64,000 nt of DNA from Escherichia coli (lineage in GTDB: Bacteria; Pseudomonadota; Gammaproteobacteria; Enterobacterales; Enterobacteriaceae), in the NCBI RefSeq assembly GCF_003991155.1, contig NZ_CP031293.1; one strand, given 5' to 3'. The position numbers were made by a program, and so were the translations under genes. Below are positions 32,126 to 62,982 of the stretch, one piece after another; positions within the stretch are counted from its first letter, which is position 1; every line of letters starts with the position of its first letter. The notes beneath the pieces were generated by a model, which was not told the DNA's origin, did not search any database, and was given only the letters and a program-made list of their open reading frames with translations.

Positions 32126-32215
32126 GTGAGTGCAGGCGTGATAGCCGGCGTGTTGCTGGTGTTTTTATTACTGGGTTATCTGGTTTATGCCCTGATCAAT
32201 GCGGAGGCGTTCTGA
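32126..32215 (+). CDS. kdpF: K+-transporting ATPase subunit F (29 aa)
   Basis: GTG start; [29 protein letters not shown]; stop overlaps the kdpA start. Confidence 0.8.
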
Positions 32216-39217: not shown

Positions 39218-39891
39218 CAAACGTTCTGATTGTTGAAGATGAACAGGCTATTCGTCGCTTTCTGCGCACGGCGCTGGAGGGCGACGGGATGCGCGTCTTT
39301 GAGGCCGAAACGCTGCAACGCGGCTTGCTGGAAGCGGCAACCCGTAAGCCAGATTTGATTATTCTCGATCTCGGCCTGCCCGATGGTGATGGGATTGAGT
39401 TTATCCGCGACCTGCGCCAGTGGAGCGCGGTGCCGGTGATTGTGCTTTCCGCACGCAGCGAAGAGAGCGACAAAATCGCCGCGCTGGATGCCGGAGCGGA
39501 TGATTACCTGAGTAAGCCGTTTGGCATTGGCGAATTGCAGGCCCGTCTGCGCGTCGCTTTACGCCGCCACTCCGCCACCACCGCGCCCGATCCGCTGGTG
39601 AAATTTTCCGATGTGACCGTCGATTTAGCCGCCCGCGTGATTCACCGGGGTGAGGAAGAGGTGCATCTCACGCCGATTGAATTCCGCCTGCTGGCCGTGC
39701 TGCTCAACAACGCCGGAAAAGTGCTCACCCAGCGCCAGTTACTCAATCAGGTGTGGGGACCAAACGCGGTCGAACACAGTCATTATTTGCGTATTTATAT
39801 GGGGCATCTGCGACAAAAACTGGAACAGGATCCCGCCCGCCCCCGCCATTTCATTACTGAAACCGGTATTGGGTATCGGTTTATGCTTTGA
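39214..39891 (+). CDS. kdpE: Response regulator KdpE
   Basis: 225 aa OmpR-family regulator; overlaps kdpD by 4 nt. Confidence 0.95.
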   Translation: MTNVLIVEDEQAIRRFLRTALEGDGMRVFEAETLQRGLLEAATRKPDLIILDLGLPDGDGIEFIRDLRQWSAVPVIVLSARSEESDKIAALDAGADDYLSKPFGIGELQARLRVALRRHSATTAPDPLVKFSDVTVDLAARVIHRGEEEVHLTPIEFRLLAVLLNNAGKVLTQRQLLNQVWGPNAVEHSHYLRIYMGHLRQKLEQDPARPRHFITETGIGYRFML

Positions 39892-40124
39892 ATATTAATT
39901 TTAATACATCCTGCCTTTTATTAATTAAAGCCGTAATAATAAATACGGCTTTTTATCTTAAACAACACACAAAAATAACAATTCAATATTTTATATTACT
40001 GAGTAAAAAGCTCATCATTAAATAAATTAAGATTGATCATTTTTTATTGATCACCTTCACAGTTCAACCGTATTTCCTGGATAGAATACCTTCACCTTCA
40101 TTCACATCAGGAAAGGTAAATTAA

Positions 40125-40229
40125 ATGGAAAATAACAGCCGCACTATGCCCCATATAAGGCGGACAACTCATATTATGAAGTTTGCTCATCGCAATAGCT
40201 TCGACTTTCACTTCTTCAATGCCCGTTAG
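40125..40229 (+). CDS. speFL: speF leader arrest peptide (34 aa)
   Basis: Hand translation MENNSRTMPHIRRTTHIMKFAHRNSFDFHFFNAR-stop matches the described ornithine-sensing leader peptide; not in the ORF track (<60 aa). Confidence 0.85.
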   Translation: MENNSRTMPHIRRTTHIMKFAHRNSFDFHFFNAR

Positions 40230-40486
40230 TCTACCGACTAAGGGCACTTCAGCGTACAGGTCTTCCTGACTCTCTGTATTACAGGCATATGCCTGTATTC
40301 CGCAGTGCTCATTCTCTGTTAACCCTTGTATTATCAGCCACCGGACTGATAAGGGTTTCTGCATTCTGAAAAAAGCAAACTTCTGATTAATTTATCAGCG
40401 GGGTAACTTTGCTTTTTTTCCGGCACGATCGATTTCTCATTCGAGAAATTGAGGACCTGCTATTACCAAAAATAAAGAGTTGGAAA

Positions 40487-42685
40487 ATGTCAAAATTAAA
40501 AATTGCGGTTAGTGATTCTTGCCCGGACTGTTTTACCACGCAGCGAGAATGTATCTATATTAATGAAAACAGTAATATCGATGTGGCGGCAATAGTTTTA
40601 TCGCTCAACGATGTTACACGCGGAAAACTCGATGAAATCGATGCCACGGGTTATGGCATCCCGGTATTTATTGCTACTGAAAATCAAGAACGTGTACCCG
40701 CAGAGTATTTGCCCCGTATTTCGGGTGTCTTTGAGAATTGCGAATCGCGACGAGAATTTTATGGTCGTCAGTTAGAAACCGCAGCCAGCCATTATGAAAC
40801 TCAACTGCGCCCGCCCTTCTTCCGCGCACTGGTCGATTATGTCAATCAGGGTAACAGCGCGTTTGATTGCCCCGGTCATCAGGGCGGCGAATTTTTCCGT
40901 CGCCATCCGGCGGGGAATCAGTTTGTGGAATACTTTGGTGAGGCGCTGTTCCGTGCTGACTTGTGCAACGCGGATGTGGCAATGGGCGATCTGCTGATTC
41001 ACGAAGGCGCGCCATGCATTGCACAGCAACATGCGGCAAAAGTGTTTAATGCCGATAAAACATACTTCGTTCTAAATGGCACTTCATCTTCTAACAAAGT
41101 GGTTTTAAACGCCCTGTTAACACCGGGGGATCTGGTGCTGTTTGACCGTAATAACCATAAATCTAATCACCACGGAGCGTTGCTACAGGCTGGCGCAACA
41201 CCAGTTTATCTGGAAACCGCACGCAACCCGTATGGCTTTATCGGTGGTATTGATGCCCACTGCTTCGAAGAAAATTACCTGCGCGAACTGATTACAGAAG
41301 TCGCACCGCAGCGGGCAAAAGAGGCGCGTCCTTTCCGCCTCGCCGTTATTCAGCTAGGCACTTACGACGGTACGATTTATAACGCCCGTCAGGTGGTGGA
41401 TAAAATTGGTCATCTGTGTGACTACATCCTCTTTGACTCCGCATGGGTCGGCTATGAGCAGTTTATCCCGATGATGGCGGACTGTTCACCACTGTTGCTG
41501 GATCTTAATGAGAACGATCCGGGTATTCTGGTTACGCAATCTGTGCATAAACAGCAGGCTGGTTTTTCCCAGACTTCACAAATCCATAAAAAAGACAGCC
41601 ATATCAAAGGGCAACAGCGTTATGTACCGCACAAACGCATGAACAACGCCTTTATGATGCATGCCTCCACCAGCCCGTTCTATCCGCTGTTTGCCGCACT
41701 GGATATCAACGCCAAAATGCATGAAGGTGTCAGCGGTCGTAATATGTGGATGGATTGTGTAGTAAATGGCATTAATGCCCGCAAACTGATCCTCGATAAC
41801 TGTCAGCATATTCGTCCATTCGTACCTGAACTGGTGGATGGTAAACCCTGGCAGTCGTATGAAACAGCGCAAATTGCGGTTGATCTGCGCTTCTTCCAGT
41901 TTGTACCAGGTGAGCACTGGCATTCTTTTGAAGGCTATGCAGAGAATCAATACTTTGTCGATCCGTGCAAACTGTTGCTGACAACCCCAGGTATTGATGC
42001 ACGTAACGGCGAATATGAAGCGTTCGGTGTACCCGCGACGATTCTTGCTAACTTCCTGCGCGAAAATGGCGTAGTGCCGGAAAAATGCGATCTTAACTCC
42101 ATCCTCTTTCTGCTGACTCCGGCAGAAGATATGGCCAAACTTCAGCAACTTGCTGCTCTGCTGGTACGCTTCGAAAAACTGCTTGAGTCCGACGCGCCAT
42201 TATCAGAAGTACTGCCTTCCATCTACAAACAGCATGATGAGCGCTACACCGGTTATACCCTGCGTCAGTTGTGTCAGGAAATGCATGATTTGTATGCCCG
42301 TCACAACGTGAAACAACTGCAAAAAGAGATGTTTCGTAAGGAACACTTCCCACGTGTCAGCATGAATCCACAAGAAGCCAACTACGCCTATTTACGCGGT
42401 GAAGTGGAGCTGGTTCGTCTGCCGGATGCAGAAGGCCGTATCGCTGCAGAAGGTGCGCTTCCTTATCCTCCGGGTGTGCTGTGTGTTGTTCCGGGTGAAA
42501 TCTGGGGTGGTGCTGTTCTGCGTTACTTCAGCGCTCTGGAAGAAGGGATCAACCTGCTGCCAGGTTTTGCACCGGAGCTTCAGGGTGTCTATATCGAAGA
42601 ACATGATGGTCGTAAGCAAGTTTGGTGCTATGTCATCAAGCCTCGTGATGCGCAAAGCATCCTGTTGAAAGGGGAAAAATTATGA
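40487..42685 (+). CDS. speF: Inducible ornithine decarboxylase
   Basis: 732 aa from MSKLKIAVSDSCPDCFTTQRECIYINE...; the upstream extension in the ORF track is rejected. Confidence 0.95.
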   Translation: MSKLKIAVSDSCPDCFTTQRECIYINENSNIDVAAIVLSLNDVTRGKLDEIDATGYGIPVFIATENQERVPAEYLPRISGVFENCESRREFYGRQLETAASHYETQLRPPFFRALVDYVNQGNSAFDCPGHQGGEFFRRHPAGNQFVEYFGEALFRADLCNADVAMGDLLIHEGAPCIAQQHAAKVFNADKTYFVLNGTSSSNKVVLNALLTPGDLVLFDRNNHKSNHHGALLQAGATPVYLETARNPYGFIGGIDAHCFEENYLRELITEVAPQRAKEARPFRLAVIQLGTYDGTIYNARQVVDKIGHLCDYILFDSAWVGYEQFIPMMADCSPLLLDLNENDPGILVTQSVHKQQAGFSQTSQIHKKDSHIKGQQRYVPHKRMNNAFMMHASTSPFYPLFAALDINAKMHEGVSGRNMWMDCVVNGINARKLILDNCQHIRPFVPELVDGKPWQSYETAQIAVDLRFFQFVPGEHWHSFEGYAENQYFVDPCKLLLTTPGIDARNGEYEAFGVPATILANFLRENGVVPEKCDLNSILFLLTPAEDMAKLQQLAALLVRFEKLLESDAPLSEVLPSIYKQHDERYTGYTLRQLCQEMHDLYARHNVKQLQKEMFRKEHFPRVSMNPQEANYAYLRGEVELVRLPDAEGRIAAEGALPYPPGVLCVVPGEIWGGAVLRYFSALEEGINLLPGFAPELQGVYIEEHDGRKQVWCYVIKPRDAQSILLKGEKL

Positions 42686-44001
42686 GTCAGGCTAAATCGA
42701 ACAAAATGGGCGTCGTTCAGTTAACCATACTGACGATGGTCAACATGATGGGCTCCGGTATCATCATGCTGCCGACAAAGCTTGCCGAAGTTGGGACAAT
42801 CTCAATAATCTCCTGGTTGGTGACTGCCGTAGGCTCAATGGCGCTGGCATGGGCATTCGCAAAATGCGGCATGTTCAGCCGTAAATCAGGCGGTATGGGC
42901 GGTTATGCGGAGTATGCTTTCGGTAAATCAGGGAACTTTATGGCGAACTACACCTACGGTGTCTCGCTGCTGATTGCTAACGTCGCGATTGCTATTTCGG
43001 CGGTTGGTTACGGCACCGAACTGCTCGGCGCGAGTTTGTCGCCAGTGCAGATTGGTCTTGCGACCATCGGAGTGCTGTGGATTTGTACCGTGGCTAACTT
43101 TGGTGGTGCGCGCATTACCGGGCAAATCAGTAGCATTACTGTGTGGGGGGTCATTATTCCGGTCGTCGGTCTGTGCATTATCGGCTGGTTCTGGTTTAGC
43201 CCGACGCTATACGCTAACTCATGGAACCCGCACCATGTGCCGTTCTTTAGCGCTGTAGGTTCTTCCATCGCTATGACGTTGTGGGCTTTCCTTGGTCTGG
43301 AGTCAGCCTGTGCCAACGCCGAAGTAGTGGAAAACCCGGAACGTAACGTGCCAATAGCAGTCCTTGGCGGTACGTTAGGTGCGGCGGTGATTTATATCGT
43401 CTCCACCAACGTGATTGCCGGGATTGTGCCAAATATGGAGCTGGCAAATTCAACGGCACCATTTGGCCTGGCCTTCGCACAGATGTTCACACCAGAAGTG
43501 GGTAAAGTCATTATGGCGCTGATGGTGATGTCCTGCTGCGGTTCACTGCTTGGCTGGCAGTTCACCATTGCCCAGGTGTTTAAATCTTCATCTGATGAAG
43601 GCTACTTCCCTAAAATTTTCTCCCGTGTAACCAAAGTGGATGCACCGGTTCAGGGAATGTTGACCATTGTGATTATTCAGAGTGGATTGGCACTGATGAC
43701 CATTAGCCCGTCACTGAACAGCCAGTTCAACGTGCTGGTTAACCTGGCCGTGGTGACCAATATCATCCCGTATATTCTGTCGATGGCAGCATTAGTTATT
43801 ATTCAGCAGGTCGCCAATGTGCCACCGTCAAAAGCGAAAGTAGCAAACTTTGTTGCCTTTGTTGGTGCGATGTACAGTTTCTATGCGCTGTACTCATCCG
43901 GGGAAGAAGCCATGCTGTACGGTTCCATCGTGACCTTCCTTGGTTGGACACTGTATGGTCTGGTATCTCCACGCTTTGAACTGAAAAATAAACACGGTTA
44001 A
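42682..44001 (+). CDS. potE: Putrescine-ornithine antiporter
   Basis: 439-aa APC-family transporter; 4-nt overlap with speF. Confidence 0.95.
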   Translation: MSQAKSNKMGVVQLTILTMVNMMGSGIIMLPTKLAEVGTISIISWLVTAVGSMALAWAFAKCGMFSRKSGGMGGYAEYAFGKSGNFMANYTYGVSLLIANVAIAISAVGYGTELLGASLSPVQIGLATIGVLWICTVANFGGARITGQISSITVWGVIIPVVGLCIIGWFWFSPTLYANSWNPHHVPFFSAVGSSIAMTLWAFLGLESACANAEVVENPERNVPIAVLGGTLGAAVIYIVSTNVIAGIVPNMELANSTAPFGLAFAQMFTPEVGKVIMALMVMSCCGSLLGWQFTIAQVFKSSSDEGYFPKIFSRVTKVDAPVQGMLTIVIIQSGLALMTISPSLNSQFNVLVNLAVVTNIIPYILSMAALVIIQQVANVPPSKAKVANFVAFVGAMYSFYALYSSGEEAMLYGSIVTFLGWTLYGLVSPRFELKNKHG

Positions 44002-44012
44002 TAAAGCAAAGT

Positions 44013-44046
44013 AAAAAAGGGCGATCTTCTGACCGCCCTTTTTCTT
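44013..44046. terminator. Bidirectional intrinsic terminator between convergent potE and pgm
   Basis: A-run, stem AAGGGCG/CGCCCTT, T-run. Confidence 0.65.
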
Positions 44047-44057
44047 ATTAAATGTGT

Positions 44058-45698
44058 TTACGCGTTTTTCAGAACTTCGCTAACAATCTCAACCGCTTCT
44101 TTCTCGATCTGCTTGCGATGTTCTTCACCGAGGAAGCTTTCGCAGTAGATCTTATATGCGTCTTCCGTGCCTGACGGACGCGCGGCGAACCAGCCGTTGT
44201 CAGTCATCACTTTCAGACCGCCAATAGAAGCACCGTTGCCAGGCGCAGCGGTCAGGCGCGCGGTGATCGGGTCACCTGCCAGGGTGCTGGCGCTCACCAT
44301 TTCCGGAGACAGCTTAGACAGCGCCGCTTTTTGTGCGGAAGTCGCAGCTGCCTGCAAACGGTTGTAGCTCGGCGCACCAAAGCGTTTTGCCAGTTCGTTG
44401 TAGTGTTCCTGCGGGTTCTTACCGGTGACAGCGGTGATTTCCGCCGCCAGCAGACACATAATGATGCCGTCTTTGTCGGTGGACCACGGCGTGCCGTCGA
44501 AACGCAGGAAGGAAGCCCCTGCGCTCTCTTCGCCGCCAAAGCCGAAGCTGCCGTCGAACAGGCCATCAACAAACCATTTGAAGCCTACCGGCACTTCCAC
44601 CAGCCTGCGGCCCAAATCATTGACCACACGGTCGATCATCGCAGAAGAAACCAGCGTTTTACCAACGGCAACATCTTTGCCCCACTGCGGACGATGCTGG
44701 AACAGGTAATTGATCGCCACCGCCAGGTAGTGGTTCGGATTCATCAAACCTGCCGGAGTGACGATACCGTGACGGTCATAATCCGGGTCGTTAGCAAACG
44801 CCAGATCGAACTTATCACGCAGTGCCAGCAGACCCGCCATCGCACACTCGGAGGAGCAGTCCATACGGATCGCGCCGTCTTTATCGAGGTGCATAAAGCG
44901 GAAGGTTTGATCGACCTGATCGTTAACGATGGTCAGGTTAAGGTTGTAATACTCGCCAATACGCTTCCAGTATTCGATACCGGAACCGCCCAGCGGATCA
45001 ACGCCCAGCGTCAGGCCCGCTTTCTGAATCGCCGCCATATCAACGATATCGGCCAGACCTTCCACAAACGGCTGCACCAGATCCTGCTCTTTCACATGAC
45101 CGGATGCCATCGCTTCGTCGAGGGAGATACGCTTCACGCCTTTCAGGCCATCGGCCAGCAGTGCGTTGGCACGATCTTCCACCACTTTAGTGACGTTGGT
45201 ATCAGCCGGGCCACCATTTGGCGGATTGTACTTGATACCACCATCTTCCGGCGGGTTATGGGACGGTGTAATCACGATACCGTCTGCCAGTGGGCCACCT
45301 TTTTTATTGTGAACCAGGATGGCATTGGAAACGGCAGGCGTCGGAGTGAAGCCATTGTTTTCCTGCACAATAACATCAACGCCGTTCGCTGCCAGCACTT
45401 CCAGAACGGAAATGAACGCAGGTTCGGACAGGGCGTGAGTATCTTTACCCACATAGCAAGGGCCAGTGATGCCGTTTTTCGCACGTTCTTCAGCAATTGC
45501 CTGAGCGATCGCCAGAATATGCGGCTCGTTAAAGCTGTGGCGCGCTGCACTGCCACGGTGACCGGAAGTACCGAATTTCACCGCGTGCTCCGCATTCCCT
45601 GCTTCTGGTTTCAGTACATAATATTGCGCCGTCAGTTGGGCGACGTTAATCAAATCACTCTGTTGTGCAGGTTGGCCTGCACGGTTGTGGATAGCCAT
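44058..45698 (-). CDS. pgm: Phosphoglucomutase
   Basis: 546 aa from [22 protein letters not shown]...; active-site TSGHRGS motif. Confidence 0.93.
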
Positions 45699-48530: not shown

Positions 48531-48617
48531 ATGATACGCATTATCTCAAGAGCAAATTCTGTCACTTCTTCTAATGAAGTGAACCGCTTAGTAACAGGAC
48601 AGATTCCGCATGACTGA
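48531..48617 (+). CDS. uof: uof leader ORF upstream of fur (28 aa)
   Basis: MIRIISRANSVTSSNEVNRLVTGQIPHD-stop; stop overlaps the fur start, consistent with translational coupling. Confidence 0.7.
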   Translation: MIRIISRANSVTSSNEVNRLVTGQIPHD

Positions 48618-62278: not shown

Positions 62279-62355
62279 GGCTACGTAGCTCAGTTGGTTA
62301 GAGCACATCACTCATAATGATGGGGTCACAGGTTCGAATCCCGTCGTAGCCACCA
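62279..62355 (+). tRNA. metT: tRNA-Met (elongator, CAU)
   Basis: GGCTACGTAGCTCAGTTGGTTAGAGC...CTCATAA...GGTTCGAATCC...CCA cloverleaf. Confidence 0.93.
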
Positions 62356-62363
62356 TCTTTTTT

Positions 62364-62448
62364 GCGGGAGTGGCGAAATTGGTAGACGCACCAGATTTAG
62401 GTTCTGGCGCCGCAAGGTGTGCGAGTTCAAGTCTCGCCTCCCGCACCA
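62364..62448 (+). tRNA. leuW: tRNA-Leu (UAG), long variable arm
   Basis: GCGGGAGTGGCGAAATTGGTAGACGC...TTTAGGT...GAGTTCAAGTCTCGCCTCCCGCACCA. Confidence 0.9.
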
Positions 62449-62471
62449 TTCACCAGAAAGCGTTGTACGGA

Positions 62472-62546
62472 TGGGGTATCGCCAAGCGGTAAGGCACCGG
62501 TTTTTGATACCGGCATTCCCTGGTTCGAATCCAGGTACCCCAGCCA
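62472..62546 (+). tRNA. glnU: tRNA-Gln (UUG)
   Basis: TGGGGTATCGCCAAGCGGTAAGGCACCGGTTTTTGATACCGG...CCA. Confidence 0.92.
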
Positions 62547-62580
62547 TATTCTTCGAGTAAGCGGTTCACCGCCCGGTTAT

Positions 62581-62655
62581 TGGGGTATCGCCAAGCGGTA
62601 AGGCACCGGTTTTTGATACCGGCATTCCCTGGTTCGAATCCAGGTACCCCAGCCA
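62581..62655 (+). tRNA. glnW: tRNA-Gln (UUG), identical copy
   Basis: Same sequence as the 62472-62546 copy. Confidence 0.92.
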
Positions 62656-62670
62656 TCGAAGAAACAATCT

Positions 62671-62747
62671 GGCTACGTAGCTCAGTTGGTTAGAGCACAT
62701 CACTCATAATGATGGGGTCACAGGTTCGAATCCCGTCGTAGCCACCA
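62671..62747 (+). tRNA. metU: tRNA-Met (elongator, CAU), second copy
   Basis: Identical to the 62279-62355 copy. Confidence 0.93.
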
Positions 62748-62795
62748 AATTCTGAATGTGTCGAATGTGTTCGGCAAATTCACAAACCAATTTGT

Positions 62796-62870
62796 TGGGG
62801 TATCGCCAAGCGGTAAGGCACCGGATTCTGATTCCGGCATTCCGAGGTTCGAATCCTCGTACCCCAGCCA
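62796..62870 (+). tRNA. glnV: tRNA-Gln (CUG)
   Basis: TGGGGTATCGCCAAGCGGTAAGGCACCGGATTCTGATTCCGG...CCA. Confidence 0.92.
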
Positions 62871-62907
62871 ATTTATTCAAGACGCTTACCTTGTAAGTGC
62901 ACCCAGT

Positions 62908-62982
62908 TGGGGTATCGCCAAGCGGTAAGGCACCGGATTCTGATTCCGGCATTCCGAGGTTCGAATCCTCGTACCCCAGCCA
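62908..62982 (+). tRNA. glnX: tRNA-Gln (CUG), second copy
   Basis: Identical to the 62796-62870 copy. Confidence 0.92.

Follow-up and report, generated by a model that had tools for sequence, protein, structure and literature searches.

An intact speFL–speF–potE regulatory leader, carrying the K-12-type allele, almost certainly lies upstream of speF in the window, by which we mean the whole 64,000-nt stretch of Escherichia coli DNA analysed here. The leader gene speFL is the plus-strand ORF at positions 40125–40229, which runs from ATG to TAG through 34 codons and encodes MENNSRTMPHIRRTTHIMKFAHRNSFDFHFFNAR. This is exactly the translation given by an earlier note on this DNA, which had proposed an intact ornithine-sensing arrest peptide in the interval that ends at 40486, the final base before the speF ATG (40487–40489). 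Taken alone, a 34-codon ORF is within chance expectation, as 6 kb of sequence yields 91 ORFs of 20 aa or more in the mechanical list. We nevertheless consider the ORF to be real because its product is identical to SpeFL at 34 of 34 residues, because it sits upstream of speF, and because the substitutions that it has accumulated fall predominantly at third codon positions. The peptide matches the SpeFL chain of the cryo-EM structures PDB 6TBV and 6TC3 over its full length (E = 7.6e-20), as well as the b4803 peptide of K-12 MG1655, and the ORF, its Shine-Dalgarno sequence and the stop-codon hairpin are the same in K-12 and in the window. The alignment to published SpeFL sequences that the earlier note had put forward as a check therefore confirms its assignment to a known regulatory element, with all 34 residues identical. 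RefSeq annotation, the Pfam match and the comparison of haplotypes described below point the same way, and we found no sequence evidence that contradicts the speFL explanation.

The residues on which ornithine sensing has been reported to depend are all in place. The HIRRXXH ornithine-recognition loop reads H-I-R-R-T-T-H at codons 10–16 (40152–40172, plus strand), and within it the rare codons ATA-AGG-CGG, which specify Ile11, Arg12 and Arg13, occupy 40155–40163; both the motif and the part played by the rare codons are taken from the SpeFL paper (bioRxiv 10.1101/604074). Glu2, Asn3, Pro9, Phe20, Arg23, Asn24, Phe26, Phe28, Phe30, Phe31, Ala33 and Arg34 all stand at their published positions, and the effector domain (F20, F26, F28, F30, F31) ends in Arg34, followed directly by the UAG stop at 40227–40229. 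Searched exhaustively with phmmer, a library of 1.84 billion representative proteins returned 13 clusters related to SpeFL. In the alignment of these 13 relatives R13 and H16 are invariant, while conservation is at least 90% at H10, I11, R12, T15, M18, F20, H22, R23 and F26, a pattern that, judged from the alignment, matches the published sensor and effector residues of SpeFL.

Profile-based annotation of so short a peptide proved less straightforward. The sole family match was to Pfam PF10940 ‘Leader peptide SpeFL’ (formerly DUF2618), with E = 4e-5 and a score of 23.8 bits, where the gathering score is 25; the alignment takes in only residues 8–33 of SpeFL against a 40-position profile. We attribute this shortfall to the short profile rather than to divergence, since the type SpeFL sequence is identical to that of the window and would score equally. 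It follows that threshold-based Pfam annotation would miss the founding member of the family. NCBIfam contains no HMM for the SpeFL peptide.

The window leader is a common natural allele: the 671-nt region around speFL is 100% identical in at least 15 complete E. coli chromosomes from independent isolates, and in 260 genomes the identity is 99% or higher. Complete E. coli genomes are, however, split between two deeply diverged kdpE–speF leader haplotypes that are about 85% identical (window 39889–40492 compared with L003:1294–1990 and L004:1293–1990, two loci of the second type). At a query coverage of at least 80%, the K-12 type found in the window occurs in 1699 of 5426 complete genomes, whereas the second type, distinguished by N5 and L7 in SpeFL, occurs in 3318 and is the commoner of the two; speF itself was found in 5125. 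The SpeFL of the second haplotype (WP_001312672.1, beginning MENNNRLMPH) occupies the same locus, has the same 34 codons and shares 32 of 34 residues with that of the window, differing by S5N and T7L, with the motif residues and rare codons unchanged. Of the 15 nucleotides of speFL that differ between the haplotypes, 12 occupy third codon positions; counted by codon, 11 changes are synonymous and 2 non-synonymous, which indicates that the sense frame is under purifying selection at the level of the peptide. The ATA-AGG-CGG triplet is unchanged even though 11 other codons carry synonymous changes. The second haplotype also retains the pause hairpin and the terminator-like hairpin described below, but its sequence adjoining kdpE differs from that of the window, and an insertion of about 52 nt with a dispersed repeat between speFL and speF lengthens its spacer to 309 nt. 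The core of this insertion (L003:1773–1832, equivalent to query positions 477–536 of L003:1297–1984) is a short dispersed repeat that occurs at 4 sites in the median E. coli genome; its sequence presumably resembles the end of an ERIC/IRU element.

Downstream of the leader lie two genes whose products score above equivalog-level cutoffs. The regulated gene, speF (40487–42685, plus strand), encodes the inducible ornithine decarboxylase (TIGR04301 ODC_inducible, 1429.9 bits; cutoff, 1310), and the second gene of the operon, potE (42682–44001, plus strand), encodes the putrescine-ornithine antiporter (NF007938, 854 bits; TIGR04299, 845 bits); RefSeq annotates both. The chromosomal order, kdpFABCDE–speFL–speF–potE–pgm–seqA, is that of the core E. 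coli chromosome. We observed separately that speF (window 41000–42200) is unusually polymorphic for a core gene, with 1418 genomes matching at only 90–95% and roughly 300 lacking a close match. Elsewhere in the window, a plus-strand cluster at 62279–62982 contains seven tRNA genes in the order Met-Leu-Gln-Gln-Met-Gln-Gln, which we take to be the metT-leuW-glnUW-metU-glnVX cluster of K-12.

The earlier note had also stated that ORF calling overlooks speFL and that the region would be mis-called by automated annotation, and both statements hold in part. ORF tracks with a length threshold do omit speFL, but the mechanical list used here, with its minimum of 20 aa, includes it. Likewise, mis-calling is confined to naive length-cut tracks: in DNA that is 100% identical, RefSeq places ‘speFL: leader peptide SpeFL’ (WP_211180488.1) at the exactly equivalent coordinates between kdpE and speF, and PGAP calls speFL, starts speF at its ATG and predicts nothing antisense. 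In genomes of the second haplotype PGAP additionally reports a ‘hypothetical protein’ of 44 aa, encoded in a different frame and overlapping the start of speFL (L003:1458–1592 and L004:1457–1591), a call that is probably spurious; no counterpart of it is annotated in the window haplotype. Two further small genes of the window fall below 60 aa and are likewise hidden by a length cut-off, namely kdpF (29 aa, GTG start; 32126–32215) and uof, the fur leader peptide (28 aa; 48531–48617), both identical to the copies annotated by RefSeq in strain 2016C-3878. The lesson is that length-cut ORF tracks hide functional mini-genes and instead display shadow ORFs and starts placed too far upstream, while curated pipelines such as PGAP already treat the speFL locus correctly.

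Several RNA landmarks of the leader could be placed on the plus strand. A scan of 39850–40550 found no match to a sigma-70 consensus promoter. A −10-like hexamer, TAGAAT, can be read at 40082–40087 within the block TGGATAGAATA, which does not vary between the E. coli haplotypes, and no −35 consensus element lies upstream of it; the hexamer is therefore best regarded as a candidate. Given the lack of a consensus sigma-70 site, we placed the start of transcription by analogy with Salmonella, where the mapped start lies 31 nt ahead of the orf34 AUG (PMC6386406); transcription in the window would accordingly begin near 40094, 31 nt before the speFL AUG. Upstream of TAGAAT there are also two TGATCA palindromes, which start at 40034 and 40048 (together 40034–40053) and are partly conserved in the other haplotype; these could be a putative binding site for a regulator. 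The Shine-Dalgarno sequence of speFL, AGGAAAGG, lies at 40109–40116, 8 nt before the ATG, and at the equivalent position Salmonella orf34 has AGGA (PMC6386406).

At the 3′ end of speFL, codons 33–34 and the UAG are covered by a predicted hairpin (40220–40246) with a folding energy of −15.2 kcal/mol (z = −3.96). None of 200 shuffled sequences folded as well, and the other haplotype has an equivalent at −15.8 kcal/mol. We identify this structure with the hairpin at which, in the published model, RNA polymerase pauses (10.1101/604074). Directly after it, GGCACTTCAGCG at 40243–40254 fits the pause consensus given in the SpeFL paper (G−11 G−10 … Y−1 G+1; 10.1101/604074) and predicts a premature 3′ end at 40253; the element lies approximately 160 nt from the presumed start site, compared with a short transcript of 157 nt in Salmonella (PMC6386406). 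A C-rich, G-poor stretch spans the 3′ half of speFL and slightly beyond (40165–40254), where the C/G ratio in 60-nt windows reaches its maximum of 2.0–2.4 for windows starting at 40165–40180, as against at most 1 near speF. Its composition is consistent with a candidate rut (Rho-loading) site overlapping speFL, and a rut in this position is stated in the SpeFL paper (10.1101/604074).

The intergenic leader between speFL and speF (40230–40486) is 257 nt long, which equals the published length (10.1101/604074), and contains four further predicted hairpins at 40267–40311, 40321–40357, 40368–40419 and 40429–40452. The whole leader folds better than shuffled sequences (z = −3.27), and an Rfam scan of it at permissive E-values returned no family; the Rfam ‘speF’ leader RNA of other bacteria is evidently a different element. 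One of the four hairpins, 40368–40419, also emerged from a terminator scan. Located about 70 nt before speF and flanked by an A-tract and a T-tract, it has a predicted energy of −14.4 kcal/mol (z = −3.1), is conserved in both haplotypes, and in its modelled form looks like an intrinsic or bidirectional terminator. It is not mentioned in the available text of either 10.1101/604074 or PMC6386406, and for the Salmonella speF 5′UTR the authors report no Rho-independent terminator (PMC6386406). The leader ends with the speF ribosome-binding region (AAGAG) and ATG at 40475–40489, the start at 40487 being that of both RefSeq and the NCBIfam profile alignment. In the minimum-free-energy fold of the full leader, the speF RBS/AUG region (40475–40491) pairs with speFL codons 27–31 (40203–40216). 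For the window allele this helix has an energy of −8.4 kcal/mol, and 120 of 500 shuffles are equal or better; in the other haplotype it reaches −14.7 kcal/mol, with only 3 of 500 shuffles equally good. As the duplex of the window allele is no better than shuffled sequence, we do not claim this regulatory layer for it.

Identity, anatomy, conservation and predicted hairpins come from our analysis, whereas ornithine sensing and Rho dependence are drawn from the literature. Ornithine-dependent stalling and Rho control have been reported for the identical SpeFL on the basis of toeprinting, cryo-EM and lacZ fusions with bicyclomycin (10.1101/604074), and also for Salmonella orf34 (PMC6386406); given the matching sequence we infer that the published mechanism operates unchanged in the window strain. 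According to the SpeFL paper (10.1101/604074, for each of the following steps), transcription would start about 30 nt upstream of speFL and RNA polymerase would pause just past the hairpin that covers the speFL 3′ end, until the first ribosome translating speFL melts the hairpin and releases it. When ornithine is low, the ribosome would terminate at the UAG while the rare Arg12 and Arg13 codons hold back trailing ribosomes, so that the C-rich rut becomes exposed; Rho would then load and terminate transcription approximately 20–25 nt past the stop codon, leaving speF and potE off. When ornithine is high, 23S rRNA and the HIRRXXH loop of the nascent peptide (residues 10–16) would together form a pocket that captures a single L-ornithine, and the C-terminal Phe-rich effector domain would prevent release at the UAG while Arg34 occupies the P site. 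Stalled and queued ribosomes would then cover the rut such that Rho cannot load, permitting readthrough into speF–potE. Work on Salmonella adds further layers: there, a long-range helix that hides the speF RBS is opened when the leader is translated, and the rate of translation at the Arg codons affects sensitivity to RNase G (both from PMC6386406).

One may postulate alternative scenarios in which the interval has a different coding content. As the earlier note had observed, the mechanical list shows both an antisense ORF of 85 aa (40107–40364, minus strand) and an extension of speF upstream to 40409. The antisense ORF is the longest across the interval, and were it the real gene the 34-codon sense ORF would be incidental; we consider this exceedingly improbable. 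It has no Pfam or NCBIfam match and is absent from the RefSeq annotation, and in the second haplotype it is cut to 45 aa, where the sense ORF keeps its 34 codons with almost only synonymous changes; the sense peptide, moreover, has been seen in a ribosome structure. We therefore reject it as a gene and judge it to be a non-coding shadow of speFL and the leader. Similarly, the mechanical 758-aa ORF begins at TTG 40409, and if translation started there speF would carry an N-terminal extension of 26 residues and part of the leader would be coding. The chance of this is, in our view, vanishingly small: position 1 of the NCBIfam ornithine decarboxylase profiles aligns with residue 1 of the protein that starts at ATG-40487, RefSeq starts speF at the same ATG, and the extension would cover a conserved hairpin and the speF Shine-Dalgarno sequence. 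In addition, K-12 has one T fewer in the T-run just after the TTG, which puts that codon out of frame with speF, and we reject the TTG start. The truncation in the other haplotype, the lack of a family, the K-12 reading frame and the profile start together identify the antisense ORF and the TTG-extended speF as artefacts of mechanical listing.

A different possibility is that the ORF is intact, yet regulation departs from that of K-12 through polymorphisms of the spacer or promoter, with an altered basal level or induction threshold or with a silent operon. The window leader departs from K-12 at around ten positions within the spacer and the ribosome-binding region of speF; some of these are 1-nt indels that fall within the terminator-like hairpin and its T-run. 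The predicted RBS-sequestering helix is weak in the window, as its shuffle statistics above indicate. However, K-12 has the same or almost the same sequence for speFL, its Shine-Dalgarno sequence, the pause hairpin and approximately 230 nt upstream. None of the predicted hairpins is lost, and the allele is a common natural one, found unchanged in at least 15 independent isolates. Altered regulation is accordingly very unlikely, and the interval is best read as an intact K-12-type speFL–speF–potE leader.

The speFL of the window is thus real, correctly identified, already well characterised and an ordinary finding. Its importance beyond correct annotation is small, given that speFL is a textbook-level metabolite-sensing nascent peptide and that this copy is identical to the one whose structure has been published. 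The only item of some interest is that the leader comes in two haplotypes, a division that could affect regulation. The window leader is 98–99% identical to K-12, while the speF coding region is only about 96% identical to that of strain 4FA, presumed to be a K-12-type genome; this combination suggests mosaic recombination. More speculatively, E. coli may maintain two old, recombining speFL–speF leader alleles, the K-12 type of the window and the commoner N5/L7 type with its repeat insertion and its much stronger predicted RBS helix, possibly with different basal levels or ornithine thresholds, as a regulatory rather than neutral polymorphism. We regard this as rather unlikely; if true, the leader haplotypes would represent a natural regulatory polymorphism in putrescine production.

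The closest known system is E. coli K-12 SpeFL itself (b4803; 6TBV/6TC3; Herrero del Valle et al., bioRxiv 10.1101/604074), to which the peptide, stop codon, rare codons and pause hairpin of the window are identical. K-12 also has the 257-nt spacer and the order kdpE–speFL–speF–potE. The study of Herrero del Valle et al. reportedly appeared in Nat Microbiol in 2020. Outside the ORF, the K-12 and window leaders are separated by approximately 12 single-base differences or 1-nt indels; within the spacer about 10 positions differ, two 1-nt indels among them. The two also differ after the operon: K-12 has ybfP–ybfG–ybfI after potE, whereas in the window potE is followed directly by pgm. At 44001–44058 we observed the 3′ end of pgm adjoining potE across a 56-nt gap, and the segment of strain FDAARGOS_497 that carries a wHTH pseudogene and DUF2625 is also absent there.

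Beyond E. coli, orf34 of Salmonella Typhimurium (Ben-Zvi et al. 2019, PMC6386406) likewise precedes speF, has 34 codons and contains AGG-CGG as consecutive Arg codons, and its translation is needed to prevent Rho-dependent termination just after the ORF. The long-range helix described there, which joins the speF RBS to the 3′ part of the ORF (PMC6386406), has the same pairing in the minimum-free-energy fold of the window, although weakly. In Salmonella the leader is longer, placing the AUG of speF at +516 (PMC6386406) compared with an estimated +394 or so in the window, and orf34 ends in UGA (PMC6386406) where speFL of the window ends in UAG. A more distant parallel is the tryptophan-sensing TnaC of tnaCAB. 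This likeness is one of mechanism only, without homology; TnaC, unlike SpeFL, has an unrelated sequence, L-Trp as its ligand, a UGA stop read by RF2 and a different ligand pocket. The logic is nonetheless alike in both systems, in that a leader peptide and a free amino acid block release at the stop codon, and the ribosome thus stalled masks the rut and prevents Rho-dependent attenuation (10.1101/604074).
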